Source: Sedimentisphaera cyanobacteriorum
GTDB lineage: Bacteria; Planctomycetota; Phycisphaerae; Sedimentisphaerales; Sedimentisphaeraceae
Assembly: GCF_001997385.1 (NCBI RefSeq)
Contig: NZ_CP019633.1
Coordinates: 1,770,001 to 1,802,000 of the forward strand
DNA: 32,000 nt
Direction of reading: 5' to 3'
How positions within the stretch are numbered: position 1 is the stretch's first letter; each line of letters starts with the position of its first letter. Of this stretch, positions 16,407-32,000 are shown piece by piece. Below the pieces are notes generated by a model. That model was not told the origin of the DNA and searched no databases. It saw only the letters and a program-made list of their open reading frames with translations. A program made the position numbers and the translations under genes.

Positions 16407-16434
16407 TTGAAAAGCTTTCGAGATATGGTATAAT
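16407..16434 (+). promoter_or_regulatory. Candidate sigma-70-type promoter of the IS5 transposase
   Basis: TTGAAA (16407-16412), 16-nt spacer, TATAAT (16429-16434), about 55 nt upstream of the transposase ATG. Sequence match only. Confidence 0.4.
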
Positions 16435-16488
16435 ATTGCAAGTGTTTATCTTACATCTATCAAAACATTGCAATATTGGGACAAAATA

Positions 16489-17832
16489 ATGAAGGCAAAA
16501 AACAATAAAGCAGGCTTACTCTTTCAGCAGCCATTAAAACCTCTTGTAAATCCTGATCACTCTTTAGTCCAACTCTCAGAGGTTGTCAACTGGTCTCGCT
16601 TTGAAGAAAAGTTTGGCAGTTTATACAGTCCTGATTCAGGCAGGCCGGCCAAGCCGATTCGCCTGATGGTCGGCCTTCAGTATCTCAAGTACACTTTCAA
16701 TCTCAGCGATGAAGCAATCGTTGCCGGCTGGGTTGAGAATCCTTACTGGCAGTATTTCTGCGGCGAAAGATACTTCCAGCACGAGCCTCCTATTGATCCA
16801 ACCAGTATGACTAAGTGGCGTAATAAGGTAAAATCTGATGGTCTTGAAGAGCTGCTCGAAGAAACTATCAAAGCCGGCTTGAAGCTTAAGGTTATCAAAA
16901 AGAACGATTTCAACAAGCTCGTTGCAGATACAACCGTTCAGCAGAAGAACATCACTTATCCGACCGACGCAAAACTCTGCCACAAACTGCGCATTAAGCT
17001 TGTAGATCTTGCAAAAGCATCAAAACTCCAACTTCGCCAAAGCTACGAAAGGGTTGGAAAAAGGGCGTATGTAATGCAGGGCAGGTATCGACGTGCAAGA
17101 CAGTTCAAAAGAGCTAAAAAAGAAGTGAAGAAATTAAGGAACTACCTGCGGCGAATTACGAAAGAGGTCGAGCGGAATATAGCAGGCAATGAGCAGTTAA
17201 GAATAATTTTTGATACATTGCTTCAAGCCGCTAAGAAGCTTTTAGCCCAGACAAAGAAAAGCAAAAATAAGCTCTACAGTATTCACGAACCTCACGTCTG
17301 CTGCATTGGGAAAGGCAAAAGCCACAAGAAATATGAGTTTGGAAATAAGGTTGGAATTGTAACTACTGCCAAGAATAATTTTATCGTAGGAGCGTTGGGC
17401 TTTGAAGGAAACCCTTATGATGGCCATACTCTTCGGGCTAATCTGAAGCAGACAATGAATTTAATCGGGAGAGAAAAGCTTGGAGATGTTTATGTTGATG
17501 GAGGATACAAGAAACATGGCTGCGAAGATATTGGAAATGTTGAAATTGTAGAAAAGGGCTGGCGAAAAAAGAAACGAAGTATCAAGAGGTGGATTAAGAG
17601 AAGATCGAGCATAGAACCAACGATAGGCCACCTCAAAGAAGACAACAGGTTGGGAAGAAACTTCTTGAAAGGTGTAGAAGGGGACAAAATGAACGCCCTC
17701 GGCAGCGCTTTTGGGTACAATATGCGTAAACTTCTAAAGAAGTTTACTTTTGCCTATATTTTTATGCTTAAAATTATTGAATTTTACAGAAATTTGGCAA
17801 TGAAAAGCAAATTAAAGACTCGATTAGCCTGA
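16489..17832 (+). CDS. IS5-family DDE transposase
   Basis: InsH/DUF772-type N-domain (GRPAKPIRLMVGLQYLKYTFNLSDE), DDE_Tnp_1 core, and the C-terminal IEPTIGHLKEDNRLGRNFLKG motif typical of IS5-family enzymes. The first ATG is 16489; the ORF track starts at TTG 16468. Confidence 0.85.
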   Translation: MKAKNNKAGLLFQQPLKPLVNPDHSLVQLSEVVNWSRFEEKFGSLYSPDSGRPAKPIRLMVGLQYLKYTFNLSDEAIVAGWVENPYWQYFCGERYFQHEPPIDPTSMTKWRNKVKSDGLEELLEETIKAGLKLKVIKKNDFNKLVADTTVQQKNITYPTDAKLCHKLRIKLVDLAKASKLQLRQSYERVGKRAYVMQGRYRRARQFKRAKKEVKKLRNYLRRITKEVERNIAGNEQLRIIFDTLLQAAKKLLAQTKKSKNKLYSIHEPHVCCIGKGKSHKKYEFGNKVGIVTTAKNNFIVGALGFEGNPYDGHTLRANLKQTMNLIGREKLGDVYVDGGYKKHGCEDIGNVEIVEKGWRKKKRSIKRWIKRRSSIEPTIGHLKEDNRLGRNFLKGVEGDKMNALGSAFGYNMRKLLKKFTFAYIFMLKIIEFYRNLAMKSKLKTRLA

Positions 17833-17927
17833 TATATTTTTTTAGTTTCCCCAAAATCATTGATTTTTCAGGAACGACTAAATTAGGAAAGACTAACTTT
17901 TTTTCAAAAGCAATTAGGGAAAGATTT

Positions 17928-18164
17928 ATGAAGCTTACTGAAGTGCCCAAAGGTAAATTTTGCAAGATAAAAAGCATATCCGCGCAAGACAGATATCTGA
18001 AGCGATTTGCAGAGATGGGGCTGAGAACCGGGGCCTGCGTTAAGGTTCTTCGTTTTGCACCTCTCGGGGATCCAATAGAGGTTAAGATAGGCAATGCCTT
18101 CCTCTCAATTAGGTGTGAGAACGCAGGTCGCATTGAAGTGGATCTTGCAGACAAATCAAACTAA
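17928..18164 (+). CDS. feoA: Ferrous iron transport protein A
   Basis: 78 aa with the FeoA SH3-like pattern (L.E...G....I......D..L.RF.EMGL..G..V.V.R.AP.GDPIEV). Located immediately upstream of feoB. Confidence 0.9.
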   Translation: MKLTEVPKGKFCKIKSISAQDRYLKRFAEMGLRTGACVKVLRFAPLGDPIEVKIGNAFLSIRCENAGRIEVDLADKSN

Positions 18165-18187
18165 AAACCAATCATCGGAATAATAAA

Positions 18188-20236
18188 ATGGAACAAATAA
18201 CAGTAGGACTTACCGGCAATCCCAACTGCGGGAAAAGCTGCGTTTTCAACAGCCTAACAGGGGCAAAACAGCATGTAGGCAACTACCCGGGCGTTACCGT
18301 TGAAAAGGTAGAGGGTTGGTGCGAGCATAAGGGCTTCAAAATACGAATTGTTGATTTGCCCGGTACATACAGCATCTCGGCTCATTCAATGGATGAAAAG
18401 GTGGCGAGAGATTTTGTGCTCAGCGAAGAGTGCGATGTCATTGTAAACGTAATAGATTCGAACAACTTCGAGAGAAATCTCTTTCTTACCACCCAGCTTT
18501 TCGAACTGAACAAGCCATTGGTTGCAGCGCTGAATATGTATGATGTGGCAACAAAGAACGGCCTTGAATACGATAAAGAAAAAATCGGCACCTTTCTGAA
18601 CGGAACTGCGGTATCAACTGTGGGCAACAAGGGCGAGGGGATAAAAGAGCTTCTGGATGCTGTGGTTTACGAATACAACTGCCAGAGAGAATTCGACAAC
18701 AGAATCAACTACGGCAGCGATATAGAAGAAAGGCTCGAAAGGCTCACCTGCCTTATATCCAAAGAGATTACCGGCGGAGATGAGAAGAAAGCCCGCTACC
18801 ACGCCCTTCAGCTTCTTCAGATGGACTGCGATATAAACGAATTCGGCAAGGATGCCGCTGAAGTTGCCCAGGAGGCAATATCCGAGCTCAACCGCATGTA
18901 CGGAGACAACCCGCACATACTTATGGCAGAGAAGAGATACGGATTTATCTCCGGTCTTTTCGAGCAGACTGTCCGAAAGACAGTTGAGATAAGACACGAT
19001 GCCAGCGATGCTATAGACAAAATCCTGCTGAACAGGGTTCTCGGGCTGCCGATATTCTTCGGGATGATGTATCTGGTTTTCAAGCTCACATTCTGGCTCG
19101 GCGATCCTGTTATGACGGTAATAGAACACGGCTTCGATATACTCAAAGGGTTTGTTTTGAGCTCTTGGCCTGCCGGCGGCGAGGGACCGCTTCAGTCTCT
19201 GATTGTTGACGGAATCATAGGCGGGGTAGGCGGAGTAGTGGTGTTTCTGCCTAATATTATATTTCTGTTTCTTGCGATTGCGGTGCTTGAAGATTCCGGC
19301 TATATGGCAAGAGCCGCTTTTCTTATGGACAGGATTATGAAAAAAATCGGTCTGCACGGGCAGAGCTTTATTCCTATGCTTATAGGCTTCGGCTGCACCG
19401 TACCTGCTATAATGGGCACGAGAATCTTGAACGAACGTAAAAGCCGGCTTACTACAATAATGATTCTTCCGCTGATAAGCTGCGGGGCCAGGCTCCCGAT
19501 ATACGCCCTGATAATACCTGCTTTCTTCCCGAAACATCTGCACGGGTTTATGATGTGGAGCATGTATGTAATAGGCATACTGATTGCGATTATTCTGGCA
19601 AAAGTCCTGCGCAAAACGCTGTTTAAGGGGAGAAATACAGTGATGCTGATGGAGCTGCCTCCATACCGCGTGCCAACGCTGAGGAGCGTGTTTACGCATA
19701 TGTGGCAGAAGAGCTGGCTCTATCTCAAGAAGGCCGGTACACTGATACTTGCGATCTCAATAATCCTCTGGGCTATGACAAGCTACCCCAAACTCCCCGA
19801 GGAACAAACCGCAGGAATGGAGCCGAAACAAGCGCAGGCTGCAGAGCTCAAGCACACAGCAGCGGGCAGAATAGCAACAACTATCGAGCCGGCAACCGAG
19901 CTTATGGGCTTTGATTACAAGATTGGCACTGCCCTTATCGGAGCATTCGCCGCCAAAGAGGTGTTCGTGGCTCAGATGGGAATCGTTAATTCGCTCGGAG
20001 AGGCGGGAGCTGAATCAAAACCGCTCAGAGAAAAGCTCAAAGACCAATACACCCCGCTGCAGGGTTTCTGCGTTATGCTGTTCTGCCTTATTTCTACGCC
20101 GTGCATCGCAACTGTTGCGATATGCCGAAAAGAGACGCAGTCTTGGGCATTTGCTATGGGGCAGTTTATGGGGCTTACGGTGCTTGCATTTGTGATTACC
20201 GCTGCGGTGTATCAGATTGGCATGCTGCTTACTTAG
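18188..20236 (+). CDS. feoB: Ferrous iron transporter B
   Basis: 682 aa. N-terminal G domain (GNPNCGKS G1, DLPGTYS G3, NMYD G4-like) followed by the polytopic gate/membrane domain. Confidence 0.95.
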   Translation: MEQITVGLTGNPNCGKSCVFNSLTGAKQHVGNYPGVTVEKVEGWCEHKGFKIRIVDLPGTYSISAHSMDEKVARDFVLSEECDVIVNVIDSNNFERNLFLTTQLFELNKPLVAALNMYDVATKNGLEYDKEKIGTFLNGTAVSTVGNKGEGIKELLDAVVYEYNCQREFDNRINYGSDIEERLERLTCLISKEITGGDEKKARYHALQLLQMDCDINEFGKDAAEVAQEAISELNRMYGDNPHILMAEKRYGFISGLFEQTVRKTVEIRHDASDAIDKILLNRVLGLPIFFGMMYLVFKLTFWLGDPVMTVIEHGFDILKGFVLSSWPAGGEGPLQSLIVDGIIGGVGGVVVFLPNIIFLFLAIAVLEDSGYMARAAFLMDRIMKKIGLHGQSFIPMLIGFGCTVPAIMGTRILNERKSRLTTIMILPLISCGARLPIYALIIPAFFPKHLHGFMMWSMYVIGILIAIILAKVLRKTLFKGRNTVMLMELPPYRVPTLRSVFTHMWQKSWLYLKKAGTLILAISIILWAMTSYPKLPEEQTAGMEPKQAQAAELKHTAAGRIATTIEPATELMGFDYKIGTALIGAFAAKEVFVAQMGIVNSLGEAGAESKPLREKLKDQYTPLQGFCVMLFCLISTPCIATVAICRKETQSWAFAMGQFMGLTVLAFVITAAVYQIGMLLT

Positions 20237-20255
20237 GAAAGGGAAAGGAGATATT

Positions 20256-20459
20256 ATGATTGAAAAGATTATCGTAGGGGCTGTGGTAGTTTTGGCGGCA
20301 GTCTTCCTTGTGTATTCGTTTGTCAAATCCTCTAAGGGAGAAACGCCCTGCGGGAAAAGCTGCCCGGCAGACTGCCCGGGGAGAAACAAAAACTGCAGCG
20401 AAGAGGAAACAAAGCAAAACTCAGGCAGCGAAAATAATCAAAACACAACATCTGAATGA
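20256..20459 (+). CDS. FeoB-associated Cys-rich membrane protein
   Basis: ATG 20256 with an AAGGAG RBS. One TM helix (IIVGAVVVLAAVFLVYSFV) followed by a Cys-rich tail (PCGKSCPADCPG..NC). The ORF-track start 20217 lies inside feoB. Confidence 0.7.
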   Translation: MIEKIIVGAVVVLAAVFLVYSFVKSSKGETPCGKSCPADCPGRNKNCSEEETKQNSGSENNQNTTSE

Positions 20460-20482
20460 AAAACTAAATTGCATAAAAAAAA

Positions 20483-20512
20483 CCGCCCTCTGCTAAAGCT
20501 TGCAGAAGGCGG
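20483..20512 (-). terminator. Rho-independent terminator oriented for the minus-strand tRNA gene remnant
   Basis: 10/11-bp stem CCGCCCTCTGC / GCAGAAGGCGG. On the minus strand it is followed by T8 (A8 at 20475-20482 on +). It starts 5 nt after the tRNA 3' end. It may also stop the converging feo operon. Confidence 0.8.
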
Positions 20513-20517
20513 CAGAT

Positions 20518-20564
20518 TGGGCGATGAGGGATTCGAACCCGCGACCCGCTGATTAAGAGTCAGC
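20518..20564 (-). tRNA. tRNA-Lys(CUU) 3' half only (anticodon arm to discriminator): displaced att-site fragment, not a functional gene
   Basis: The minus strand reads GCTGA-CTCTTAA-TCAGC (anticodon arm, CUU), GGGTC, GCGGG-TTCGAAT-CCCTC (T arm, one C.U mismatch), ATGCCC-type 3' acceptor strand ATCGCCC plus discriminator A. No complementary 5' acceptor strand (GGGCGAT) or D arm exists upstream. Confidence 0.75.
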
Positions 20565-20785
20565 AGACCGAAAACGCTAAAAACATACAAGATAAAGACT
20601 TACAGCAAGGCGAAACCGGCGCTTACAAACCAGCTTACAAAGAAAACACAAAAACAAGCGAAAATCAAGCCAAAAACCTGCCGGATGATTTAGCGGAAAT
20701 TGTAGCGGTTTGGCCAACACTGCCCGAACATATTAAGGCGGCAATCAAAGCGATGATAGAGACGTTCAAGGCAAATTCAAAGTAG
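20528..20785 (+). pseudogene. Start-less 85-codon reading frame that begins inside the tRNA-derived sequence (possible C-terminal tail of a gene split at the att site)
   Basis: Checked codon by codon and open from the TGA at 20525 to the TAG at 20783. It reads GIRTRDPLIKSQQTENAK...LPDDLAEIVAVWPTLPEHIKAAIKAMIETFKANSK. No ATG/GTG/TTG occurs before the last 11 codons, so it cannot be an independent gene. Confidence 0.45.
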
Positions 20786-20858
20786 CGGTTATGTAGTCAA
20801 TACGTGTGCGGAATCCTTAATGATTTCGGTAATGAAAATTTAGTATGGAGTTGAAACT

Positions 20859-21470
20859 ATGCCAAGATACTTTTACTGGGATAAGAAAACCACTGTTGAA
20901 GAAGCAACGCAATTAAGCATATTTAAGCTTAAAGAGTTTGGTTTGTTGTGTGGTTATGCCGCTACGACCTTGACTTGGACACGCAAATTATCCGACCATA
21001 AAAGCTCTATCGGCATAGTAGTCGATACTGAAAATCTATACGCAAAAGTCAATTACACTATCACCGACCGAAACACAGACGAAAAAACGGATTATGACTA
21101 CAAAATCAGCCTTACAACAACGCCCTGTAATTTCGGGGGCAAGCGCTACTGGTTTATCTGTCCGTTAAGTGTGAACGGCTTATATTGCGGACGCAGGACG
21201 GGTACGCTTTATCTTGCTTCTGGGGGAAATTATTTCGGCTGTCGGCACTGTTATAACCTGTCTTATGAGAGCCGGAACGAATGTCGTTTAGGGCGGTTCG
21301 GCCAGATGGGATATGTTTTGAAGGCTGATAGGCAAATCGAAGAGCTTTACAAACAAATTAAGAGGTGGACTTGGGCAGGCAGGCCGACAAGGAAGGTACG
21401 GAAACTGCAAGCTCTTGAACAAAAAATGAATCGGGCAATTTCTTTGAGTGAAAGATTTCTTCTGGATTAA
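20859..21470 (+). CDS. Hypothetical protein with C-terminal zinc-ribbon-like Cys cluster
   Basis: 203 aa with GGAG upstream of the ATG. Motif C.FGGKRYWFICP....LYCGRR...LY......F.CRHCY.L.Y.S (four-Cys ribbon) is followed by a basic helical tail. No function known to me. Confidence 0.6.
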   Translation: MPRYFYWDKKTTVEEATQLSIFKLKEFGLLCGYAATTLTWTRKLSDHKSSIGIVVDTENLYAKVNYTITDRNTDEKTDYDYKISLTTTPCNFGGKRYWFICPLSVNGLYCGRRTGTLYLASGGNYFGCRHCYNLSYESRNECRLGRFGQMGYVLKADRQIEELYKQIKRWTWAGRPTRKVRKLQALEQKMNRAISLSERFLLD

Positions 21471-21635
21471 CCAACAGCTTTAATAGCCTTTTGCATTCGT
21501 CTGTCGTGTCATATAACTGCTTATGCAACACGATCTTATATTACTGAAAAAACGCTGGTGCTGTCTCATGTCTCCATTTTGTCACTGATTTGGCTTTCTT
21601 TTCCGGCTTGATTCGCCCCCATATATTTACGATAT

Positions 21636-21644
21636 AATCAATAT
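21636..21644. repeat. 9-bp target-site duplication (left copy) AATCAATAT
   Basis: Identical 9-mer directly abuts both IS4 ends (21636-21644 and 23059-23067). Confidence 0.9.
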
Positions 21645-23058
21645 CACTCTTGTCCAAGATAAATTATTGAAAAGTGAATAAAAAGCATCTCCGGTATGGT
21701 GTATATTATTTTTGCCGAATAACAGACACCTTAACACCGGAGATAAAAATATGATAAAGGTTGGCAGTTTATTTTCGCAAGTGCTTTCTTTGGTAAATCG
21801 CCATGATTTTTCGCGTGCGGTCAAGCAATGGGACGCTGAGAAAGGGGCCAAAGGCTTTCGCTGCTGGGACCAGTTTGTGGCAATGGTTTTTGGCCAACTG
21901 GCCGGGGCGGACTCGCTGCGGGAGATTGAAGGCGGCTTATCGACGGCCCTGGGCAAGCTGCGGCATCTGGGACTGAAGCAGGCTCCGGCCCGCTCGACGC
22001 TCAGTTATGCCAACGAGCATCGGCCGTATCAGCTCTTTGAAACGATGTTCTATTACCTGTCCGATCAAGCTCAAACACTGGCCGCCGGACAGAAGCGGCG
22101 GTTTCGGTTCAAGAATCCGTTGGTCAGCATCGATGCTTCGACGATTGAACTGTGCCTGTCGCTGTACGACTGGGCCAGGTTCCGGCGTAAAAAGGGAGCG
22201 GTTAAACTGCATTTGATGCTGAATCATCAGGGCTGCCTGCCGCAGTGGGCCTGGCTGACCGATGGGAAGGTCCATGACGTGAAAATGGCCAAAACCCTTG
22301 AATTTGAGCCGGGAACGATTGTTGCGGTGGATCGTGGCTATATTGATTACGATCTGTTTGACTATTGGACCGGTGAAGGCGTTTGGTTCGTGACCCGTGC
22401 CAAAAAGAATATGGCTTATCGGGTGGTCAAGACACGCGATATTCCCGACTATGGCAATATCCTGCGTGATGAAGAAATCGAGTTTACCGGCTACGATGCT
22501 TCCCATAAGTATCCGCACCGGCTGCGTCGGATTGTGGTTTGGGATGACGAAAACCAGCGTGAGATTGTGCTGCTGACCAATCATATGAACTTTGCGGCCA
22601 GTACCATTGGCCGAATTTATAAGGATCGCTGGCAGATTGAGTTGTTTTTTAAGGCAATCAAGCAGACTCTGAAGATTAAAACCTTTGTCGGCACCAGTGA
22701 AAATGCCGTGCAGATTCAGATTTGGACAGCATTATTGTGTATGCTGATCCTGAAGATCTTGCAGATGCGTTCGACGTTTGGCTGGAGCCTGTCGAATCTG
22801 GCGGCTATGTTGCGGTTTAACCTGCTGACGTACAGGGACTTGTGGGTATGGCTGAATAAGCCTTACCAAACTCCGGCCATCGGACCGCCGGAGGGCCAGT
22901 TATTATTGTTTGAATAGGATTTGGACAGCAAGAAGTGAACGATGAAATAAAATAGGGTAACCTGAACTTGAAAATTGGAACAAGTTGTCCGAAACAGACG
23001 TTTCGGTAAAGAATGTACGGAGATAGTCTGAAATCACAGATTATCTTGGACAGCAATG
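21645..23058 (+). mobile_element. IS4-family insertion sequence, intact, with 9-bp target duplication
   Basis: 1414 bp. Terminal inverted repeats: CACTCTTGTCCAAGATAAAT (21645-21664) vs the reverse complement of 23039-23058 (CATTGCTGTCCAAGATAATC). An extra subterminal copy TTGGACAGCAAG lies at 22921-22932. The element is flanked by a perfect 9-bp direct repeat. It is visibly more GC-rich than its flanks. Confidence 0.9.
21751..22917 (+). CDS. IS4-family DDE transposase (DUF4372-type N-terminus + DDE_Tnp_1)
   Basis: ATG 21751 with a GGAG RBS. N-terminus FSQVLSLV.RHDF...V....AEKG.K.F.CWDQFVAMVFGQL....SLREI. DDE core VSIDASTIELC, VAVDRGYIDY, IYKDRWQIELFFKAIKQ. Confidence 0.85.
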   Translation: MIKVGSLFSQVLSLVNRHDFSRAVKQWDAEKGAKGFRCWDQFVAMVFGQLAGADSLREIEGGLSTALGKLRHLGLKQAPARSTLSYANEHRPYQLFETMFYYLSDQAQTLAAGQKRRFRFKNPLVSIDASTIELCLSLYDWARFRRKKGAVKLHLMLNHQGCLPQWAWLTDGKVHDVKMAKTLEFEPGTIVAVDRGYIDYDLFDYWTGEGVWFVTRAKKNMAYRVVKTRDIPDYGNILRDEEIEFTGYDASHKYPHRLRRIVVWDDENQREIVLLTNHMNFAASTIGRIYKDRWQIELFFKAIKQTLKIKTFVGTSENAVQIQIWTALLCMLILKILQMRSTFGWSLSNLAAMLRFNLLTYRDLWVWLNKPYQTPAIGPPEGQLLLFE

Positions 23059-23067
23059 AATCAATAT
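23059..23067. repeat. 9-bp target-site duplication (right copy) AATCAATAT
   Basis: See left copy. It is followed immediately by the integrase ATG at 23068. Confidence 0.9.
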
Positions 23068-24066
23068 ATGAGAAAAGTATGGATTTACAAGCGAAAAAAC
23101 ATTAAAGGCTTTTGGGTGGGCTGGTACGAAAGCGGCATACGTAAAGCCAAAGTACTGCCCACAAAAGAACAAGCCGAGCACTTCAAACAGATAAAATACT
23201 CCCAACTCAATTCCGATGTTTTTACGGGCCAAGTATTAGCCGATTGGTCCCAGATGTGTAATGAATACAGAGAAGCAAAAAAAGTACAGGGTGTTACAGA
23301 TGGCACGCTTTATGAACATGCATTGACATTAAGAAATTTTGAACGTATTGTCGGAAAATGTAATTCAAAGCAAATCACTCAATGCATCATTGACAAGTTT
23401 ATACTTGAACGAGGAAAAGAAGTCAAAAAAGTCACGTTGAATAAAGATATCAGGAATATCAAAACTTTTGTTTACTGGTGTAGGGAACAACGATATTTAA
23501 ATGGCAACCTTAAGCTCAAGGAATTGAAATTAGAGGAACGCCCGGTGAAATCGCTCAATCATACCTAGGTAAGACAATTATTGAAAGCGGCTGAACTATA
23601 TCCAGCTATCAAAATGAGAATCGTGCTGGCGCTGGGAACAGGGCTTCGACGGGGTGATATAGAATCGCTGAAGATCACCGATATTGATTTTGAGAATAAC
23701 AGTATTACCACAACCAGTAAAAAGACTAAAAAGAGTATGGGCAATCGTCCGGTGCCGGAATCCATCATGAACATACTTAAGGTTTACATAAATAAATTAA
23801 GTCCCGATCAGGAAAAACTGTTCACCAAAAAATTCAATCCCCGGCAGTGGAGAAAAATTTGCATAGCCGCCGGTTTGAATGATCTTAAGTTTCACGATCT
23901 TCGCAAAATATTTGCTTCAGTGCTTGCTCAAAATGGAGTTTCGACTGCTGTGACACAGAGACTGCTTGAACACTCTTCACCGAATCTAACAAACAAGGTT
24001 TATACAAATATTGATCCTGTGCTTCGCCAATCTGTTGAAAAGCTGCCAATTCAGAAATGGCTGTAA
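23068..24066 (+). pseudogene. Tyrosine recombinase/integrase interrupted by one in-frame TAG (23566-23568)
   Basis: ORFs 23056-23568 and 23581-24066 are in the same frame. Read-through gives ...RPVKSLNHT*VRQLLKAAELYP..., a continuous integrase with an N-terminal SAM-like domain, catalytic Arg (GLRRGD), H-x-x-R (FHDLRKIF) and the terminal Tyr region (NKVYTNI). 23056-23067 is the IS end plus target duplication, so the native start is ATG 23068. Confidence 0.75.
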
Positions 24067-24195
24067 AATCACCTTAGCATATGGGTTCTTTAAATTCCTT
24101 TTCATACGGAAATTCCGTCCATTCTCTGCTTTTTTGGGTAACAATTCGTCTTGCCCGAACATAAGTACCTGTTATTAAACAAGTTAAAAAATTCA

Positions 24196-24207
24196 GGGGG
24201 GGGGGGG
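24196..24207. repeat. G12 homopolymer tract
   Basis: Twelve consecutive G counted directly. It ends 8 nt upstream of the -35 element of the promoter below. Confidence 0.95.
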
Positions 24208-24215
24208 TATTTCGG

Positions 24216-24244
24216 TTGCATTAAGTCAGGTTTGATGGTATAAT
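24216..24244 (+). promoter_or_regulatory. Near-consensus sigma-70-type promoter upstream of the FGE-domain gene
   Basis: TTGCAT (24216-24221), 17-nt spacer, TATAAT (24239-24244), about 90 nt upstream of ATG 24337. Sequence match only. Confidence 0.45.
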
Positions 24245-24336
24245 CGAGACCGTTTTAATGGATGCGGAAGGTGGTCTATACTCCCTCCCGCTATTTCTTG
24301 TTTGTGATCAACAATTATCTTATAGGAGATTTTGCT

Positions 24337-25383
24337 ATGAAACGTACAATCCTTATTGTCACGGCGGCTTTAACTGTACTTTTATCTACCCAGGTTTTTG
24401 CCAATTCAGCACCGGTGGTAAGTAATGTTTCAGCTTATCAGCGGGATGATGGCAGCGGGGTGTTGGATATTTCCTTTAAGCTGACCGATGCGGATAATGA
24501 TCGGTGCAGCATCTCGGTGGTGGCCAGCAATGACGGCGGCAGTACGTGGACGATTACGCCGTCATCATCGGCTTTGTCAGGTGCCTTAACGAATGTCTAT
24601 CCCGGCAATCGGAGTATCGCCTGGAACAGCAAGGTGGACCTGCCGGGAGTGTTCGGGCCCAATTACCGTGTGAAGGTAACGGCGGATGACGGCCAGGGTC
24701 CTTCGGGCATGGTGTGGGTGCAGATTAATGACCCCGGTGTATCGGGCCATGAGGGTTTCAATGGCGAAATGAGCAAGTATGAGACGACTAACGCCCAGTA
24801 CTGCCACTTTTTAAACGAAGCCCTTGCTTCCGGTGATATTGTTATAAGCGGCGGTGATGTTTACGGCAGCGGCGCCCCTTACGACGGACAGATTTACTAT
24901 GATTTAGATAGTAGCATTGCCCAGATTTCTTACAATGGAAGTTCTTTTTATGTCAAAACCCGCGATGGCTACAGTATGGCTAATCACCCTGTATTAGAAG
25001 TAAGCTGGTATGGTTCGATGGCGTTTGCCAGTTTCTACGGCTGGCGGTTGCCGACGGAGTGGGAGTGGCAGGCGGTGGCTGATTACAACGGTACTTTTAC
25101 TTACGGCTGCGGGACAACGATCAATACCAGTATTGCTAATTATCGATACTCCACCCATCCGCACGGCACGACGGCGGTTGGTGCGTTTGGGACGTATGGT
25201 TACGGGATGTGTGATATGGCGGGCAATGTCTGGGAGTGGACAAACTCTATCTACAGTGGCAGCTATCGACTTATCCGCGGCGGCTGCTGGTCCGGCCCCG
25301 ACCACTACTGCTCGGTCTCGCGCCGGAGCCCCACCAGCCCGTACCACTCGAGCTACGGCCTCGGGTTCCGGGTGTGTCGTTGA
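24337..25383 (+). CDS. Secreted formylglycine-generating-enzyme (FGE-sulfatase/SUMF1) domain protein with N-terminal beta-sandwich domain
   Basis: ATG 24337 with an AGGAG RBS gives the signal peptide MKRTILIVTAALTVLLSTQVFA. The C-terminal half has FGE-sulfatase signatures (HPV..VSWY...AF....GWRLPTE.EWQ.VA, GMCDMAGNVWEWT, R.IRGG.W, YGLGFRVCR). Clearly higher GC than neighbouring genes. Confidence 0.8.
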   Translation: MKRTILIVTAALTVLLSTQVFANSAPVVSNVSAYQRDDGSGVLDISFKLTDADNDRCSISVVASNDGGSTWTITPSSSALSGALTNVYPGNRSIAWNSKVDLPGVFGPNYRVKVTADDGQGPSGMVWVQINDPGVSGHEGFNGEMSKYETTNAQYCHFLNEALASGDIVISGGDVYGSGAPYDGQIYYDLDSSIAQISYNGSSFYVKTRDGYSMANHPVLEVSWYGSMAFASFYGWRLPTEWEWQAVADYNGTFTYGCGTTINTSIANYRYSTHPHGTTAVGAFGTYGYGMCDMAGNVWEWTNSIYSGSYRLIRGGCWSGPDHYCSVSRRSPTSPYHSSYGLGFRVCR

Positions 25384-25451
25384 GTATTGTGTCCCCTGGA
25401 TTTTTTTGTAAAACTTTGTACTTTGTTCTTTTACCCTGTTAGAGTTACAGA

Positions 25452-25709
25452 ATGTATTATGTTTACGTATTAGTCAGTGAAGTTGATGGGCAGTTCTATA
25501 CGGGAGCTACAGGAGACTTGAAAAAGCGTGTAAAAGAACACAATGAAGGCAAAGTGACTTCGACAGAGAAGAGAGGACCTCTTCATCTGGTTTACTATGA
25601 AGCTTGTCTCGACAAACGGGATGCTTTCAGAAGAGAGAAGTACCTGAAAACAGGTATGGGCAAACGTTATTTGAGAAACAGATTACGGGATACGTTGGAA
25701 AAACTCTAA
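25452..25709 (+). CDS. GIY-YIG nuclease family protein (small, stand-alone)
   Basis: 85 aa. YYVYVL....G.FYTG.T.DL.KRV.EHN.GK...T....P..LVYYE.......A..REK.LK matches the GIY-YIG/UPF0213 pattern. Confidence 0.85.
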   Translation: MYYVYVLVSEVDGQFYTGATGDLKKRVKEHNEGKVTSTEKRGPLHLVYYEACLDKRDAFRREKYLKTGMGKRYLRNRLRDTLEKL

Positions 25710-26256
25710 CAGGGTGAACCCTTTGCATCCGAGCGAAGCGAGGACCGAATTTAAAAATTTGAGATGGATATGAGTCAGGAATTGAAAACGCTTCATAACT
25801 TTTTTGGTGCAAACAAACAACGAAATCCTTGACACCGTTTTGTCTCCACTCGCATGTTTTTTTGCTAGCTATATGCACCCGAAAAAATCTGCGATAAAAG
25901 CCAAAAAACACAGATTGATAAAAATTTTTTAAGAAAATAGTATTTAATAGCCGGATGCTTTAATTGGGGGTAAGGGGGGATAAAAAGCTACAGCCTGAAA
26001 CAATATAGACCGTGTGTGCAGTGTTCTCTTTTTTTTGTCAAAATTCAGAGGGGGGATAGGGCTTTGAGGTAAGGCGAAGCGGCAGCGGCTCTATCGCGCA
26101 CGCGCGTAGAAATTTGTAGAAAAGAGACTCCTTTTTCAGTCAGAATCTTAGCCACGCCCCCCGCCGGTGTTTGCGATACTACCGGTACATAGGCCGTCTG
26201 CCGAGAGATAAGATTTTTCGGTTTAATTGAATAGTGGTGAGGTTCAATGAAAATTG

Positions 26257-26284
26257 TTGCCAAATGTCCTAAAGTGCGTATAAT
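26257..26284 (+). promoter_or_regulatory. Candidate promoter of the PLD-SNF2/MTase operon
   Basis: TTGCCA (26257-26262), 16-nt spacer, TATAAT (26279-26284), about 165 nt upstream of ATG 26450. Sequence match only. Confidence 0.45.
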
Positions 26285-26309
26285 ATCACTTCAAAAAGAT
26301 ACGTCAGGG

Positions 26310-26438
26310 ATGATAAATGCTAGAAAATACTTGAAGGATTGAAGACACAAGAATATGCCTGCTAATGAGGCTTGACGCTTGTGGAAGTTCCGCAAGAAGG
26401 AAGTTGACAAATGGATCGAGTCAGGTAAAGCAGTTTAA
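26310..26438 (+). pseudogene. Decayed excisionase/AlpA-type HTH (HTH_17-like) ORF with two in-frame TGA codons
   Basis: A single frame reads MINARKYLKD*RHKNMPANEA*RLWKFRKKEVDKWIESGKAV*. The last 20 aa match the C-terminal (G)R.WRFRK.E.D.W motif of excisionase-type HTH proteins. The N-terminal HTH part is shortened and interrupted. Confidence 0.4.
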
Positions 26439-26449
26439 TTGAGGACGAA

Positions 26450-29400
26450 ATGGCAAAGAAATTACCGGTCATAATAGACAATCGCAGCGGCAACACCGTA
26501 TTACAGGCACTTCAAAAACTTCTGCCTAATCTTCAGAAAATGGATATTGCTACTGGTGTTTTTGAGGTAGGCTCACTTTTGCATTTGGAGGGCCTATGGC
26601 AAGAGTTAGATAAAATCCGCATTATGATGGGAAATGAGACTACGAAAACCACTAAAAAAGTAATTATCGAAGGTCTTTTGAAAACCTCTGATGAGAGTAT
26701 TGAGCAGGAAAAGCAACGTGATGATGCTCTAACAGGACTTGCAGCTGTCCGGGAAGCTATTTCAAATAAACAAATTGTCCTGAAAACCTATTCCAAAGCC
26801 AAATTTCACGCCAAATCATACTTAATGGAATCCAAAGAGGTCAGCCCTGTCGATTTTGCTATTGTCGGCAGCTCAAATTTTACTCGACCGGGGTTAACGG
26901 AAAACCTTGAGCTTAACCTCTTTAGTACTGACCAAGCCCATATTGAGGGTCTGAGGAGCTGGTATGATCAAGTTTGGAAAGAAGGTGAGGATGTCAGTCC
27001 TGAGATTATTAACGTAATTGCCCCACACCTGAAAGAATACGCTCCATTCACGGCTTATGCTAAAGCTCTCTATGAATTTTTCGCTGGCCGTGAAAAAAGT
27101 CAAGATGAATGGGAACTTACCGAGTCGGTATTGTATTCCAGGCTTTCCCAATACCAAAAGGACGGCTATCATCAGGCGCTTCAGATAGCGGACAGATGGG
27201 GAGGTTCACTTGTTTGTGACGGTGTTGGTCTCGGAAAAACATTTATAGGTTTGATGATATTGGAGCGATGTCTTCACGAAGATCAAAGAATACTCTTGAT
27301 TGTTCCAAAATCCGCAGAAGAAAGTGTTTGGCGAGCTAACATACAGCGGTATTTAAAACCACATTATGCGATAGAATTAAATGAGCGACTCAGAATAGAA
27401 AGACATACAAGTTTTGGTCGTGAAGGACTGATTAATGAGGACTGGCTTAACTATTACCGCAAACGTTCAGATGTAATCATCATGGATGAAGCCCACCATT
27501 TCCGCAATCCTCGAACTAACCGCGGGCAGCTATTTATGGATTTAGCTGCTGATAAGAAGCTCTATATGCTCACGGCAACACCGATCAATAATTCTCTCGA
27601 TGATTTATACCACTTGATTAATTATTTCGCGCAGGGCAAAAAAGACCACTTCTCCAGCATTCGTATTCAAAACCTTAGAGGCCATTTTCTTGACGCTGAG
27701 AAGCGGATGGAGAAAAAACATCCCGAAACAGAAGTTGCTGAAATAGCTGAGGATGAAGATTTTCTCCGTACTGATGACTTACTGCGTAACGTCTTAATTC
27801 AGCGAAGCCGTAAATACGTTAAAAAATCAGAAGGTATTGATGGTGATGGGCCATTATTTCCTCAAAGACAAAAACCAAGGGTTGTTCATTATTCGCTGAA
27901 AAGCGTTTATGAAAGTTTATATGGCGAAATCAAAGAGGCGTTCGACAAGAAAAATCCATTCCTGTCTTTGGCAATATATAACACCTCAGCCTATCACAAA
28001 GACCCCGACAAACAGACAGCTGAGTACCAAAAGCTGGTAGTTGGCCTCATTCGAACATTATTGCTTAAACGGCTTGAAAGCTCATTCAAAGCTTTCGAGG
28101 CCAGCGTTGAAGATTTACTGGCCAAAATGGCACAATTCTTAAAATACTTTTCGCCCGGGCTATTCCAGGCATGGGAAACTAAAAATACGCGGTGGTGGAA
28201 ACTTGCCCAGAGCCATATAGTCGAAAGGCTTGAACTTAATGAAAAAGACACAGAAAACGAAGAAGAAGACGACATTCCTGAATTTGCTCAGGACTTCGAT
28301 CCTGACCAGCACGATATGGATAAGCTGATGGCTGATGTTGAAGAGGATATGGAACTGCTAACCAACTTCCTCAGTAAAATCTACAGACGTTTTTATATAA
28401 AAGGTAAAGAAGGCGAAGCCGAAGACCCGGAGAAAGACAGCAAGCTTCAAAACCTGCTTGCACTGTTCTCCGATGAGCCGCTGCTGAATAATCAAAAGGC
28501 CATCATATTCACTGAATTTAGAAATACTGCCCGATACCTGAAAGACCAGCTTACAAAAGCCGGCCTTGAAAATGTCGAGCAGGTTGACAGCGGCAGAAAT
28601 GTAACAAATCGCGAAATGGTAATCAAACGCTTCGCTCCTTACTATAACTGCGGCTTAGCTGATTCTCCTGATTTGCTTGGCCAGACCGAGCTTTCAAAAT
28701 GCCTGGATGATCCAATCGACATTCTCATTTCAACAGATGTTCTCTCTGAAGGCTTGAACCTCCAGGATGCCAGTCTAATTATCAATTATGACCTGCATTG
28801 GAATCCGGTTCGGCTGATGCAGCGTATAGGCCGTGTTGACAGGCGGCTTAATCCGGATATAGAAGAAATGCTTGATAGGCCCCCGGAGCTAAAACATAAA
28901 GTGTATTTCTGGAATTTTCTGCCGCCAAAGGAGCTTGAAGACTTACTGCACCTAAAGAAAAAACTGGATGGCAAGATATTGCGAATAAATAAAACGCTCG
29001 GTATCGAAGGTGCGCTGCTTACACCGGATGACCCCGATATGGCAATGAAACTTTTCAACGAGCGTTATGAAGGCAAAGAAACTATAGAAGAGCTGATGCG
29101 GCTGGAAAAACAGCGAATCGAAGCAGAAAACCCACAAATCTGGCAATCGCTCGAAAAACTCCCCAAACGCCTGTTCAGCGGCAAGAAAGCTGGTGCCGGT
29201 TTTGGTGCTATTGTCAATCGCAGAGGTGAGGAAATCGACCGCCTTGAACCGAATACCAAGCCCGGTTTATTTGCCTGCTACCGTATGCCGCCTATTATTG
29301 GAAAAGCGGCTGAGTATCTCGAAGAAGTCACCCAAGAAAAATACGACCCCGAAAAACACCCGCAGGGCGAGGTGAAATGGTATTTCCGGGACGACGAAAC

Positions 29401-29605
29401 CGGTAAAATCAGCGAGGTACTGGAAGAAACCTGGACGGCTGTCAGATGTGCTAAAGATACCGCCCGCACTGTTGAGCAGGGAGTAACCAAACTTGCCCCT
29501 GCCCGAAAAGATATAGAAAAACACATTAAAAATACCTACCTGAAAGACATACAGGCCCCGATAGGAGCAAAGCCGACTTTAATCTCATGGATGGAGATAA
29601 GCTGA
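26450..29605 (+). CDS. PLD-nuclease domain fused to SNF2-family (SF2) helicase/ATPase
   Basis: 1051 aa. N-terminal HKD motif (FHAKSYL ... GSSNFT; His codon at 26807). Helicase motif I DGVGLGKT (27218-27241) and motif II DEAH (27485-27496). Helicase_C region (LISTDVLSEGLNLQDAS..INYDLHWNPVRLMQRIGRVDR). Confidence 0.85.
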   Translation: MAKKLPVIIDNRSGNTVLQALQKLLPNLQKMDIATGVFEVGSLLHLEGLWQELDKIRIMMGNETTKTTKKVIIEGLLKTSDESIEQEKQRDDALTGLAAVREAISNKQIVLKTYSKAKFHAKSYLMESKEVSPVDFAIVGSSNFTRPGLTENLELNLFSTDQAHIEGLRSWYDQVWKEGEDVSPEIINVIAPHLKEYAPFTAYAKALYEFFAGREKSQDEWELTESVLYSRLSQYQKDGYHQALQIADRWGGSLVCDGVGLGKTFIGLMILERCLHEDQRILLIVPKSAEESVWRANIQRYLKPHYAIELNERLRIERHTSFGREGLINEDWLNYYRKRSDVIIMDEAHHFRNPRTNRGQLFMDLAADKKLYMLTATPINNSLDDLYHLINYFAQGKKDHFSSIRIQNLRGHFLDAEKRMEKKHPETEVAEIAEDEDFLRTDDLLRNVLIQRSRKYVKKSEGIDGDGPLFPQRQKPRVVHYSLKSVYESLYGEIKEAFDKKNPFLSLAIYNTSAYHKDPDKQTAEYQKLVVGLIRTLLLKRLESSFKAFEASVEDLLAKMAQFLKYFSPGLFQAWETKNTRWWKLAQSHIVERLELNEKDTENEEEDDIPEFAQDFDPDQHDMDKLMADVEEDMELLTNFLSKIYRRFYIKGKEGEAEDPEKDSKLQNLLALFSDEPLLNNQKAIIFTEFRNTARYLKDQLTKAGLENVEQVDSGRNVTNREMVIKRFAPYYNCGLADSPDLLGQTELSKCLDDPIDILISTDVLSEGLNLQDASLIINYDLHWNPVRLMQRIGRVDRRLNPDIEEMLDRPPELKHKVYFWNFLPPKELEDLLHLKKKLDGKILRINKTLGIEGALLTPDDPDMAMKLFNERYEGKETIEELMRLEKQRIEAENPQIWQSLEKLPKRLFSGKKAGAGFGAIVNRRGEEIDRLEPNTKPGLFACYRMPPIIGKAAEYLEEVTQEKYDPEKHPQGEVKWYFRDDETGKISEVLEETWTAVRCAKDTARTVEQGVTKLAPARKDIEKHIKNTYLKDIQAPIGAKPTLISWMEIS

Positions 29606-29606
29606 T

Positions 29607-32000
29607 ATGACCCCGCTGGATATAGATAGAATAAGACAGGTTGATGATTTTGAATCGCTTGTTGTGTTTTTACGAGATGAGCTTGAATGGCCGCTGCAAG
29701 CAGAAGATATTGAAGACCTTTCATTTGATTATGAACCCGAAGAACTCGGCATATCAGATGAAGTCGCCGTCAAGATAAACTATATAAAACAGCTTCGGCC
29801 ATTGGCAGATAATCAGCCGTGGGGCATTTTTTATATCGACTTTGAACCGAAAAAGCTGCCTGTGGTGGTGCTTCGCAGAGTACTTCAAAAACTGGTAATC
29901 AAAAAGCGTTCAACCTCACAGAAATCAAACATGCCCGGTTGGCAGATGAATGACTTGCTTTTCATCAATTCTTTTGGCCAGCAGGACCAAAGGGAAATCA
30001 CTTTTGCTCATTTCAGGCAGGAAGATGATAATCAACTTCCGACATTGAAAGTTATTGGCTGGGATGGACAGGATACTCCGCTTCATCTTGACCGCTGCCA
30101 AAATGAATTGGGCCACCTAAGATTTGATCCTGACACCGATGCCGAAACATGGCGAACAAACTGGTCGACGGCGTTCACAACTACACACAGACATACTATC
30201 AGCACTTCTAAGAAGTTGGCACAGGAACTTGCCGAATTGGCGAAAATAGTGCGAGTGAACGCAGAACACATCCTCAAATATGAAACCGAGGGCGGGCGAT
30301 TCAAAAAAGCAATGGCAAAATTCAAAACCGCCCTGATTCACGATCTGACCGAAGAAGATTTTGCCGATATGTACGCTCAGACCATCGCTTACGGCCTGCT
30401 TTATACCGCTATCCGCAGTCACGTCTCCGGCGAAGCGAACGCGGTTTCCACTGAACGCGTCCAGCAGCTTGTCCTGCCAACTAATCCATTTCTAAAAGAA
30501 GTGATGGAGGGCTTTTTCAATATCGGTGCTCGTAAATGGGATTCTGAAAAGGAGATGATAACCGGCATTGAGTTTGATGAACTGGGTATCAATGAAATCA
30601 TCAGCACCTTAAAGGACGAGAGAACAGATTTCGATGCTATCCTGCGGGACTTCGGCAACAAAAACCCAAACGAAGACCCCGTTATTCACTTCTATGAGCT
30701 TTTTCTCAAAGAATACGATGCCCTTAAGCGAAAATCCAGAGGTGTCTATTATACCCCTCAGCCGGTTGTATCTTTTATTGTCAGAAGTGTTGACCAAGTC
30801 TTAAAACGTGATTTTAAACTGCCGCTCGGCCTTGCCGATACTACAACCTGGGGACAGATGCACAAAAATAATCCTGATATTAAGATTCCTGACGGGGTAA
30901 GTGAGGATGATTTCTTCGTGCAGATTCTCGACCCTGCTTTAGGGACCGGTACTTTCCTTGTCGAGACAATAGATTTAATTCACAAGACAATGATCGAAAC
31001 CTGGCAAGACAAGGGTAAAAATGAAGAAGAAATCAAACAGCTATGGAATCAATATGTACCGGATTGCCTGCTGCCGCGTCTTTACGGTTTTGAACTTATG
31101 ATGGCTCCGTATGCCATTGCCCATATGAAAATCGGAATCAAACTCTTTGAAACCGGCTATCAGAATTTTCAGCAGGATAACCAACGCGTCCGTGTTTATC
31201 TTACCAATACGCTCGAAGAACCTGTCGATACCACCGAATATCTTGCCACCCTTGACCCTGCTATGGCTGAAGAAACCCGTCAGGCAAATGAAGTTAAAAA
31301 GAAAGACTCAATCACGGTAGTTATTGGAAACCCCCCATACTCCGGTTTATCGTTTAATATGAATTCGTGGATAGACGGTTTACTAAAGGGTCAAATCCCT
31401 AACGGTCCCAAAGTTCGCAGTTATTATGAAGTTGATGGTCAGCCTTTGGGCGAAAGAAAACTTTGGCTTCAGGATGATTATGTTAAATTCATTCGTTATA
31501 GCCAATTTCGTTTAGATAATACTGGCATTGGAGTTATGGGCCTGATTACCAACCACGCCTATCTTGATAATCCAACATTTAGAGGTATGAGACAGGCATT
31601 GCTGGAAAGTTTTGACATTCTGAATTTCGTAGATTTACACGGTAACGCCAAGAAAACAGAAGTGCCTCCAGAAGGTTTAGCTAATGAAAATGTCTTTGAT
31701 ATTCAACAGGGTGTAGGTGTTTGCCTACTAAGAAATACTCAAAAAACAGATCAATCACACGTTTCTTATGCAAGCTTTTGGGGAAGCCGTGAAAACAAAT
31801 ACACCCTTTCTCTGAAGAATACAACTTATACCGTAGATTGTGATAGGCTATCACCTAATTCTCCATACTATTTCTTTGTTCCCAGAGATGAAGACAATCG
31901 TGATGAATATGAAAATTGCTATAAGATTAACGATATTATGGCAGTTAATGTTACCGGAATTGTTACCGCAAGAGATGAGTTTGTAATCGATTTTGACAGC
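29607..32000 (+). CDS. Large N6-adenine DNA methyltransferase (type IIG/DrmMI/PglX-like), 3' end outside window
   Basis: Not in the ORF track because no stop is reached. I translated it by hand: ATG 29607 lies 1 nt after the SNF2 TGA and the frame is open for 798 codons to the window end. Motifs: RGVYYTP, motif I DPALGTGTF (30930-30956), motif IV NPPY (31329-31340). A ~300-aa N-terminal region was not recognised. Confidence 0.85.
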   Translation, partial: MTPLDIDRIRQVDDFESLVVFLRDELEWPLQAEDIEDLSFDYEPEELGISDEVAVKINYIKQLRPLADNQPWGIFYIDFEPKKLPVVVLRRVLQKLVIKKRSTSQKSNMPGWQMNDLLFINSFGQQDQREITFAHFRQEDDNQLPTLKVIGWDGQDTPLHLDRCQNELGHLRFDPDTDAETWRTNWSTAFTTTHRHTISTSKKLAQELAELAKIVRVNAEHILKYETEGGRFKKAMAKFKTALIHDLTEEDFADMYAQTIAYGLLYTAIRSHVSGEANAVSTERVQQLVLPTNPFLKEVMEGFFNIGARKWDSEKEMITGIEFDELGINEIISTLKDERTDFDAILRDFGNKNPNEDPVIHFYELFLKEYDALKRKSRGVYYTPQPVVSFIVRSVDQVLKRDFKLPLGLADTTTWGQMHKNNPDIKIPDGVSEDDFFVQILDPALGTGTFLVETIDLIHKTMIETWQDKGKNEEEIKQLWNQYVPDCLLPRLYGFELMMAPYAIAHMKIGIKLFETGYQNFQQDNQRVRVYLTNTLEEPVDTTEYLATLDPAMAEETRQANEVKKKDSITVVIGNPPYSGLSFNMNSWIDGLLKGQIPNGPKVRSYYEVDGQPLGERKLWLQDDYVKFIRYSQFRLDNTGIGVMGLITNHAYLDNPTFRGMRQALLESFDILNFVDLHGNAKKTEVPPEGLANENVFDIQQGVGVCLLRNTQKTDQSHVSYASFWGSRENKYTLSLKNTTYTVDCDRLSPNSPYYFFVPRDEDNRDEYENCYKINDIMAVNVTGIVTARDEFVIDFDS

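Follow-up and report, generated by a model that had tools for sequence, protein, structure and literature searches.

We studied a stretch of 32,000 nucleotides from Sedimentisphaera cyanobacteriorum (assembly GCF_001997385.1, contig NZ_CP019633.1, positions 1,770,001-1,802,000, forward strand), here called the window, which ends in two adjacent genes on the + strand. Gene 1 (26450-29605) encodes an HKD nuclease of the phospholipase D (PLD) type fused to a Snf2-type ATPase, and is the proposed restriction and motor subunit. Gene 2 enters the window with its 5' part (29607-32000, 798 open codons) and encodes an N6-adenine methyltransferase. Its first 190 residues (29607-30176) form a domain that is the hallmark of the family, and that we propose to be the adaptor to gene 1. 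From sequence comparison we estimate, with a probability of about 65%, that the two genes constitute a self-contained two-subunit ATP-dependent restriction-modification (R-M) system. All coordinates below are window positions, and all features of the pair lie on the + strand.

Pairing and modularity

The pairing was studied in 84 metagenomic and genomic loci with a homolog of gene 1 (39-85% identity) and flanks of up to 10 kb; 80 of them come from a metagenome scan with alignment of the homologs. In 70 of the 84 loci the helicase gene is followed, in the same orientation, by an open reading frame (ORF) headed by the N-terminal domain of gene 2, whatever the type of methylase that follows. The 14 loci without such a partner have at most 2.4 kb of downstream sequence, and 11 of these have less than 1.1 kb. 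The junction is no longer than 70 bp in 49 of the 70 paired loci. In the window the TGA of gene 1 (29603-29605) and the ATG of gene 2 (29607-29609) are parted by 1 nt, exactly as the initial annotation of this DNA had described, and a GGAG (29593-29596) is found 10 nt 5' of this ATG. Further, on IMG/VR contigs the partner is kept by all nine full-length homologs with at least 39% identity.

Only two families are conserved around these genes. When 736 non-overlapping neighbouring ORFs of at least 100 aa from the 84 loci were clustered, gene 1 was found in 84 loci and gene 2 in 68, while the next family reached 4 loci. None of DrmA, DrmB, DrmC, a DUF499 ATPase or a YprA-type helicase recurs across the 84 loci. 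The module therefore appears to be self-contained. The initial annotation had offered an unclassified compact module of nuclease-helicase and methylase as one of two readings; this is the one that the loci favour, and it can be sharpened to a methylase and target-recognition domain (TRD) of the Type ISP/IIL kind combined with an effector resembling MtsD and SauUSI.

The pairing is strict, but the methylase body is not fixed. Helicases that are 82-85% identical to gene 1 sit next to different types of methylase body, and the two genes are thus exchanged as modules. No helicase region was found to vary together with the partner type: the identity profiles are flat and have no localised signal.

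In 19 loci the two genes are separated by 300-1600 bp holding variable cargo: ORF6N, Peptidase_M78, an AAA_16 ATPase, Fic with MarR, an IS200 transposase, a Roc-COR GTPase and ORFs without a Pfam match (cargo loci L028, L031, L032, L043, L051, L054, L065, L082, L087 and L094). A conserved third gene in these gaps was considered and ruled out: the inserts are mutually unrelated and belong to varied families. Comparable insertions are described for Type I R-M and Hma operons (PMC11232893). Judging from this cargo, other defence or toxin genes may preferentially insert at the junction between helicase and methylase.

Gene 1

Gene 1 is an ATG-initiated ORF of 1051 aa. The nuclease domain covers residues 65-176 (26642-26977; PLDc_2 34.5 bits, cut-off 27) and includes FHAKSYL (residues 119-125), with H120 and K122 at 26807-26815, and GSSNFT (residues 140-145), with GSSN at 26867-26878; a motif search finds a single HxK...GSxN motif per chain. 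The N-lobe of the ATPase (residues 235-405, 27152-27664) matches SNF2-rel_dom with 57.7 bits and ResIII with 36.7 bits, the Pfam span being residues 235-403, and carries the Walker A motif DGVGLGKT (residues 257-264, 27218-27241) and DEAH (residues 346-349, 27485-27496). An insertion of about 270 aa (residues 406-672) separates it from the C-lobe (residues 673-798, 28466-28843; Helicase_C 69.1 bits), within which motif VI, QRIGRVDR, is found at 28820-28843. The remaining C-terminal region (residues 799-1051, 28844-29602) has no Pfam match; in the homolog alignment it is conserved and has many invariant residues, for example W977, W995, R999 and C1000.

PLDc_2, SNF2-rel_dom/ResIII and Helicase_C all exceed the Pfam gathering score, so the description of gene 1 as an HKD nuclease joined to a complete Snf2 ATPase, together with the motifs quoted for it, could be adopted unchanged from the initial annotation. 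That these features are not due to chance follows from the invariance of the catalytic residues: H120, K122, G140 and S141 are present in 84 of 84 homologs covering the site, Q791, G794 and R795 likewise in 84 of 84, and K263, D346, E347 and H349 in 85 of 85 gene 1 sequences. The start needs correction. The coordinate at which the stretch first noted starts, 26257, is not that of gene 1; it is the beginning of a candidate sigma-70-like promoter, TTGCCA-16 nt-TATAAT (26257-26284), which is a consensus match only (11 of 12 positions) and lies 166 nt 5' of the true ATG at 26450.

In the protein collection gene 1 is 100% identical to P0001 of Sedimentisphaera cyanobacteriorum, annotated as 'ATP-dependent helicase HepA', and the closest PDB matches of its ATPase are the Sso1653 Snf2 protein, ISWI and RapA. 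The top PADLOC match is the 'HKD+Snf2' model C3a139 (215 bits, profile positions 46-850 of 948). More distant plasmid relatives of gene 1 score about equally against this model, and a score of this size indicates a probable sibling family, not membership.

Methylase body and specificity domain of gene 2

Gene 2 consists, in this order, of the N-terminal domain, a helical spacer, a gamma-class N6-adenine methyltransferase and the start of a specificity domain. The methyltransferase core (residues ~350-720, 30654-31766) is defined by Pfam matches to N6_Mtase, Eco57I and MmeI_Mtase and by motif X, RGVYYTP (residues 378-384, 30738-30758), motif I, DPALGTGTF (residues 442-450, 30930-30956), and motif IV, NPPY (residues 575-578, 31329-31340); the gamma-class assignment made earlier is thereby borne out. 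Against the PADLOC model REase_MTase_IIG (PDLC03610) the protein scores 489 bits, and (N/D)PP(Y/F/W) is found in all 51 full-length methylase partners of the helicase homologs.

About 300 residues in front of the core had been considered unassignable. For residues 1-190 this still holds, as they form a conserved domain without assignment. Residues ~191-345 (30177-30641), on the other hand, correspond to a helical spacer like that of MmeI and DrdV: helices are predicted at 201-307, and partner proteins match MmeI_hel or DUF7814 in Pfam at this position.

Sequence identity falls along gene 2. To its closest relatives it is about 90% in residues 1-550, about 62% in residues 551-700 and only 24-45% from residue ~700 on, where a hypervariable TRD begins (31707-32000, running past the window end). 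This drop is the kind of TRD turnover familiar from R-M enzymes. Full-length relatives are 1120-1190 aa long, nearly all with a Type_ISP_C domain, which starts near residue 747 in the relative from L095. Pfam does not call Type_ISP_C in gene 2 itself, of which only about 50-100 residues of the region lie inside the window. For the relative P0126 (76% identical to gene 2) the best PDB sequence match is DrdV (7lo5, E 2e-31), followed by LlaBIII residues 898-1254 (E 1.7e-29) and LlaGI (E 4.9e-29), and NCBI labels some relatives 'type ISP restriction/modification enzyme'. These matches place gene 2 in the lineage of Type ISP and Type IIL methylase-specificity proteins, as in LlaBIII and DrdV.

The length of the relatives varies. 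Several proteins of about 1330-1350 aa (P0173, P0176, P0186, P0216, P0226 and others) carry a C-terminal, LexA-like Peptidase_S24 domain, and shortened forms of 831-865 aa recur (P0132, P0139, P0189, P0199). In L118 (8001-12009) Type_ISP_C and Peptidase_S24 are encoded by separate ORFs after one of 832 aa, while in L117 (8001-10499) the shortened ORF stops 83 bp before the contig end. The 831-865-aa forms may reflect a break or an assembly error where the hypervariable TRD begins. An idea taken from PMC9881135, that the TRD undergoes programmed inversion, was rejected: four sampled loci contain no inverted repeats of 25 bp or more.

The N-terminal domain

The first 190 residues of gene 2 have no Pfam match. 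An AF2 model predicts an alpha/beta fold with six strands (pLDDT 77, pTM 0.74), and the alignment shows a near-invariant E80-x-K82 just before a helix as well as an invariant D116; W72, G73, F75, F79 and R129 do not vary either.

What this domain replaces can be seen from eleven stand-alone relatives (L003-L013; 37-44% identical, ~1030-1090 aa). Their matches to gene 2 begin at residues 185-200, so that they align only from residue ~190, and their own N-termini carry a PD-ExK nuclease motif, APD(F/Y)...IE(A/C)K. They have neither a homolog of gene 1 nor any helicase within 10 kb, and they are ordinary stand-alone enzymes of the Type IIL kind. In gene 2, the domain of ~190 aa takes the place of their PD-ExK nuclease. 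A divergent nuclease of the MmeI/DrdV type was tried as an identity for the domain and was ruled out (hhalign probability 0.1).

The domain, always beside a helicase of the gene 1 family, heads at least three types of methylase body: the Type_ISP_C body of gene 2, Eco57I with TaqI_C (L016, L020) and Eco57I with DUF7008 (L025, L075, L078). A profile of the domain and spacer matches 1588 representatives of 50% identity clusters at E<=0.001, and 391 at E<=1e-30. Among the 150 best profile matches listed, the alignment begins within the first ~15 residues in nearly all full-length proteins. Searched by itself against proteins, the domain yields only short fragments, which say little about architectures.

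A few variants deviate from the common arrangement. One partner (L095, 8076-12887) has an extra C-terminal GmrSD_N (DUF262) domain. The N-terminal domain is found as a separate short ORF in L040 (4723-5181), L069 (13111-13950) and L077 (4721-5590), the methylase gene is split in L022 (13090-14640), and short N-terminal-domain proteins occur on long contigs too, e.g. P0250, P0304 and P0308. The separate ORFs and split genes could be genuine splits or pseudogenes.

Proposed mechanism and alternatives

We propose the following mode of action. Gene 2 would be the subunit for recognition and modification: by analogy with the Type ISP/Type IIL lineage it would bind a short asymmetric site and methylate one strand, thereby marking self DNA. 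Gene 1 would be the restriction subunit, combining a Snf2-type ATP motor with a PLD/HKD nuclease. The N-terminal domain of gene 2 would dock or activate gene 1, in place of the built-in PD-ExK nuclease, and once an unmethylated site is recognised, gene 1 would be licensed to translocate with ATP and to cleave. Since each gene 1 chain has one HKD motif, its catalytic site should need two chains. BfiI forms its PLD active site from two chains. The Snf2-driven translocation could then unite two complexes for cleavage, and inverted pairs of sites would probably be favoured, as in Type ISP, Type III and MANTIS. In MANTIS the effector MtsD, structurally similar to SauUSI, is a dimeric PLD nuclease (catalytic H122) with a superfamily 2 (SF2) ATPase and one shared PLD site, and restriction is strongest at inverted site pairs (bioRxiv 10.64898/2026.09.23.753747).

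Several observations weigh against this proposal. The identity of the N-terminal domain follows the type of methylase and not the helicase: in L016 the helicase is 82% identical to gene 1, while the N-terminal domain is only 28% identical to that of gene 2. This is unlike the co-evolution of a tight interface and calls for caution about the docking idea. The model of the domain has no significant Foldseek neighbour in the PDB either (best E 0.026). In MANTIS the loading of the methylase takes two additional proteins, and MtsD was not activated in vitro (bioRxiv 10.64898/2026.09.23.753747); a mechanism with two proteins should therefore not be taken for granted here. Finally, gene 2 has no exact database match and its best relative is 78% identical. 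As gene 1 does have an exact match, gene 2 may be disrupted past the window, annotated as a pseudogene, or simply missing from the collection.

The pair could also be two functionally independent neighbours: a self-sufficient Type IIG/IIL enzyme with a very divergent nuclease as its N-terminal domain, or a mere methylase, next to an autonomous SauUSI-like (Type IV-like) motor nuclease or a back-up effector. Stand-alone relatives of gene 2 such as DrdV do function as single chains, SauUSI is autonomous as cited in bioRxiv 10.64898/2026.09.23.753747, and the independence of N-terminal-domain identity from helicase identity fits as well. A degenerate nuclease core is formally possible on the basis of E80-x-K82 and D116, which are compatible with PD-(D/E)xK; however, a conserved Asp is missing where the first metal-binding residue would be expected, profile comparison finds no similarity to the MmeI/DrdV nuclease, and Foldseek finds no nuclease neighbour. 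Gene 1, moreover, contains no target-recognition domain recognisable by Pfam, and the two genes are nearly always found together, in many cases with translational coupling. We regard independence as unlikely. Purely epigenetic or regulatory roles, with a methylase beside a RapA-like remodeller, or a system of non-cleaving exclusion, are brought to mind by Snf2 proteins such as RapA, which act on RNA polymerase. We find this quite improbable, given that the residues of the HKD nuclease are invariant across the 84 homologs and that the TRD is hypervariable; defence and toxin cargo between the two genes, flanking mobile elements and the presence of the pair on predicted viral contigs also speak for a cleaving defence.

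Known multi-gene systems provide two further readings. The initial annotation considered the pair as the start of a class 1 DISARM operon, drmD and drmMI, with drmA, drmB and drmC just past the window. Class 1 DISARM does have this gene order, with the Snf2 helicase before the adenine methylase; DrmD models appear among the lower-scoring matches of gene 1, and the stretch 3' of gene 2 lies past the window end. Nevertheless, this idea has very little left in its favour: gene 1 scores 138 bits against the NCBIfam model DISARM_DrmD, whose cut-off is 610, and 97 bits against DrmD_b (cut-off 950); PADLOC DrmD models reach about 100 bits compared with 215 for 'HKD+Snf2'; and PADLOC DrmMI models match about 40-100 residues of gene 2 with E 0.002-0.01, compared with 489 bits for the Type IIG model. 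At the level of families, rather than in this genome, no third family occurs in more than 4 of the 84 homologous loci. Where the helicase is closest to gene 1, no DrmA (YprA-type helicase) or DrmB (DUF1998) follows the methylase: L014 and L015 (85% identical) have small unrelated genes, Mrr_N, DUF4230 and HNH_5, and L016 (82% identical) has an ion channel. Alternatively the pair might be a reduced MANTIS or BREX-related system (BR type 2, Gao_RL), or an ARMADA-like one, whose further ATPase or helicase partners are encoded elsewhere. The best defence-model match of gene 1 is 'HKD+Snf2', BR type 2 has an effector with N-terminal HKD and Snf2 together with an N6-methylase (PMC12839542; bioRxiv 10.64898/2026.09.23.753747), and in ARMADA II a Snf2 helicase is followed by a PglX-like methylase. 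Yet no DUF499, DUF3780 or YprA-like gene is found in the 26 kb upstream of the pair, and none recurs in the homologous loci. The 215-bit match to a profile of 948 positions is what a sibling family would give, and the methylase is of the Type ISP/IIL kind with its own TRD. Such a reduced system seems to us highly doubtful, and a two-subunit R-M system remains the reading that we prefer.

Surroundings of the pair

In the window the pair is preceded by mobile elements scattered among ordinary genes (leuS, purH, aroDE, ispD, feoB): three insertion sequence (IS) transposases, a broken tyrosine recombinase and a GIY-YIG ORF. The transposases, identified by Pfam and all on the + strand, are of the rve family (6716-7540), of the DUF772+DDE_Tnp_1 type (16468-17832) and of the DUF4372+DDE_Tnp_1 type (21712-22917); feoB (18188-20236) lies between the last two. 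Adjacent ORFs of 170 aa (23056-23568) and 161 aa (23581-24066) follow on the + strand. Pfam has no match for the 170-aa ORF and identifies the 161-aa ORF as the catalytic half of a tyrosine recombinase (Phage_integrase); together they look like one integrase gene split by a stop or a frameshift. The small GIY-YIG ORF is placed at 25452-25709 by the window annotation. The neighbourhood of integrase (23056-24066), IS and GIY-YIG genes had been pointed out before and is as described. The tRNA link given with it is not supported in the window: ARAGORN finds 0 tRNAs there, and there is no Rfam RNA in 13000-32000.

The peptide '...RLWKFRKKEVDKWIESGKAV*' is encoded immediately 5' of gene 1, at ~26373-26432 on the + strand, after a stop codon in the same frame. 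It looks like the C-terminus of an excisionase or AlpA-type helix-turn-helix protein and is probably a gene remnant. The GC content of the pair is 0.42-0.45, compared with 0.40-0.52 elsewhere in the window, and is not informative.

The flanks of homologous pairs contain integrases, IS elements, toxin-antitoxin genes, ArdC, Cas2 and Gabija-like genes. In L118 (75-4431 and 12044-15162) we find Cas2, two Uma2 genes, DUF4276 and a pair resembling GajA and GajB (DUF2813/AAA_15 and UvrD_C), surroundings that suggest a defence-island setting.

More distant HKD-Snf2 relatives, with at most 30% identity, are found on Nostoc and Deinococcus plasmids in the opposite gene order, and haloarchaeal plasmids give HKD-Snf2 matches of similar or lower identity. 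On the Nostoc plasmid pn2 (L097, 4021-12288) and on pRadio5 of Deinococcus radiophilus (L098, 2730-12153) the relatives, with ~29% identity, lie 3' of large Type IIG-like methylases of the TaqI_C type that do not have the N-terminal domain of gene 2. Variable genes lie between, for instance one for a DUF262 protein, and viperin and EVE-domain genes are found nearby in L097. Large methylases accompanied by an HKD-Snf2 protein are therefore not confined to the family of gene 1 and gene 2.

Novelty and meaning

Searches of the full-text literature turned up no paper in which the pair is named or characterised. The arrangement is mentioned once in passing without being characterised, and a prior description elsewhere, for example in REBASE or the newer defence catalogues, is possible. 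Apparently, then, the pair is a widespread and unnamed ATP-dependent R-M module with an undescribed adaptor domain. A bolder proposal, on which we lean slightly towards doubt, is that it stands for an unrecognised class of ATP-dependent R-M systems, in which an adaptor of ~190 aa plugs various mutually unrelated methylase-TRD bodies, each a single chain and of the Type_ISP_C, TaqI_C or DUF7008 type, into one shared HKD-Snf2 motor nuclease, with hosts in Planctomycetota, Desulfobacteria and Acidobacteriota as well as in predicted proviruses.

Current pipelines label gene 2 as 'Type IIG' or 'type ISP restriction/modification enzyme' and gene 1 as 'HepA' or 'helicase-related protein'. If our reading is right, these labels hide that the methylase chain lacks a nuclease and depends on the neighbouring gene for both nuclease and motor. 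Recognising the pair would define a family of hundreds of clusters. It would also suggest an evolutionary route, in which a Type IIL-like enzyme appears to have given up the nuclease on its own chain and gained an adaptor to a PLD nuclease driven by ATP. Under the bolder proposal, the pair would be a minimal two-protein model of the step by which a methylase, on recognising its target, activates a PLD-SF2 effector, a step that could not be reconstituted for MANTIS. Both the activation of effectors like MtsD and SauUSI and the discrimination of self from non-self by hemimethylation could be studied in it.

Comparison with known systems

In its overall logic of nuclease, ATP motor, methylase and TRD the pair resembles the Type ISP enzymes LlaGI and LlaBIII, and relatives of gene 2 share with them a gamma-class N6-adenine methylase followed by a Type_ISP_C specificity domain. 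Type ISP enzymes, however, are single polypeptides with an Mrr-type PD-(Q/E)xK nuclease, an SF2 motor of their own and a coupler (PMC3874165). The pair consists of two ORFs parted by a stop codon, a split that is kept in 70 loci; its nuclease is of the HKD/PLD type and its motor of the Snf2 type, both on the separate protein, and a phmmer comparison at E<=0.001 gives no match between gene 1 and either LlaBIII or LlaGI. The new N-terminal domain would stand for the link between the two halves. With the Type IIL/IIG enzymes DrdV and MmeI, gene 2 shares the helical spacer, gamma methylase and TRD. These enzymes carry the N-terminal PD-ExK nuclease (APD...IEAK) on the same chain and have no helicase partner, whereas gene 2 has an unrelated domain of ~190 aa and always an HKD-Snf2 gene alongside.

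Gene 1 is in turn similar to MtsD of MANTIS: both have an N-terminal PLD nuclease with a single HKD motif (H122 in MtsD, H120 in gene 1) and an SF2 ATPase, and in MANTIS, too, an N6-adenine methylase defines asymmetric sites. We take the PADLOC 'HKD+Snf2' model to represent the effector of the MANTIS (Gao_RL) family. The difference is that in MANTIS a DUF499 AAA+ ATPase, MtsA, and a small DUF3780 protein, MtsB, load a different methylase, MtsC, while genes of the MtsA and MtsB types are found neither in the 26 kb upstream nor in the annotated homolog loci, nor as a conserved family in the clustering. SauUSI, a Type IV enzyme, likewise combines a dimeric PLD nuclease with an SF2 motor, as cited in bioRxiv 10.64898/2026.09.23.753747, but methylated cytosine is its target, it brings a TRD of its own, and no methylase accompanies it; no sequence match between it and gene 1 is found at E<=0.001. 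In class 1 DISARM, too, the adenine methylase gene comes after that of a Snf2 helicase, and a PLD nuclease is involved; there it is the separate gene DrmC, and in gene 1 it is fused to the helicase.

Finally, Type III systems (Mod and Res, e.g. EcoP15I) also consist of a methylase with a built-in TRD and an SF2 ATPase-nuclease subunit. They hemimethylate asymmetric sites and need inverted sites, two properties that the pair would share if our proposal is correct. Their Mod is beta-class, the nuclease of Res is a C-terminal PD-ExK domain and its motor is Rad25-like (PMC2292703), while gene 2 has the gamma-class motif order (X, I, IV) and the nuclease of gene 1 is HKD. The subunits are homologous only through the generic SF2 and methylase folds, and the ResIII match of gene 1 reflects the generic SF2 N-lobe. 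Of Type ISP, Type IIL, MANTIS, DISARM, ARMADA and Type III, the pair lacks at least one tested defining feature each, and it is a member of none of them.

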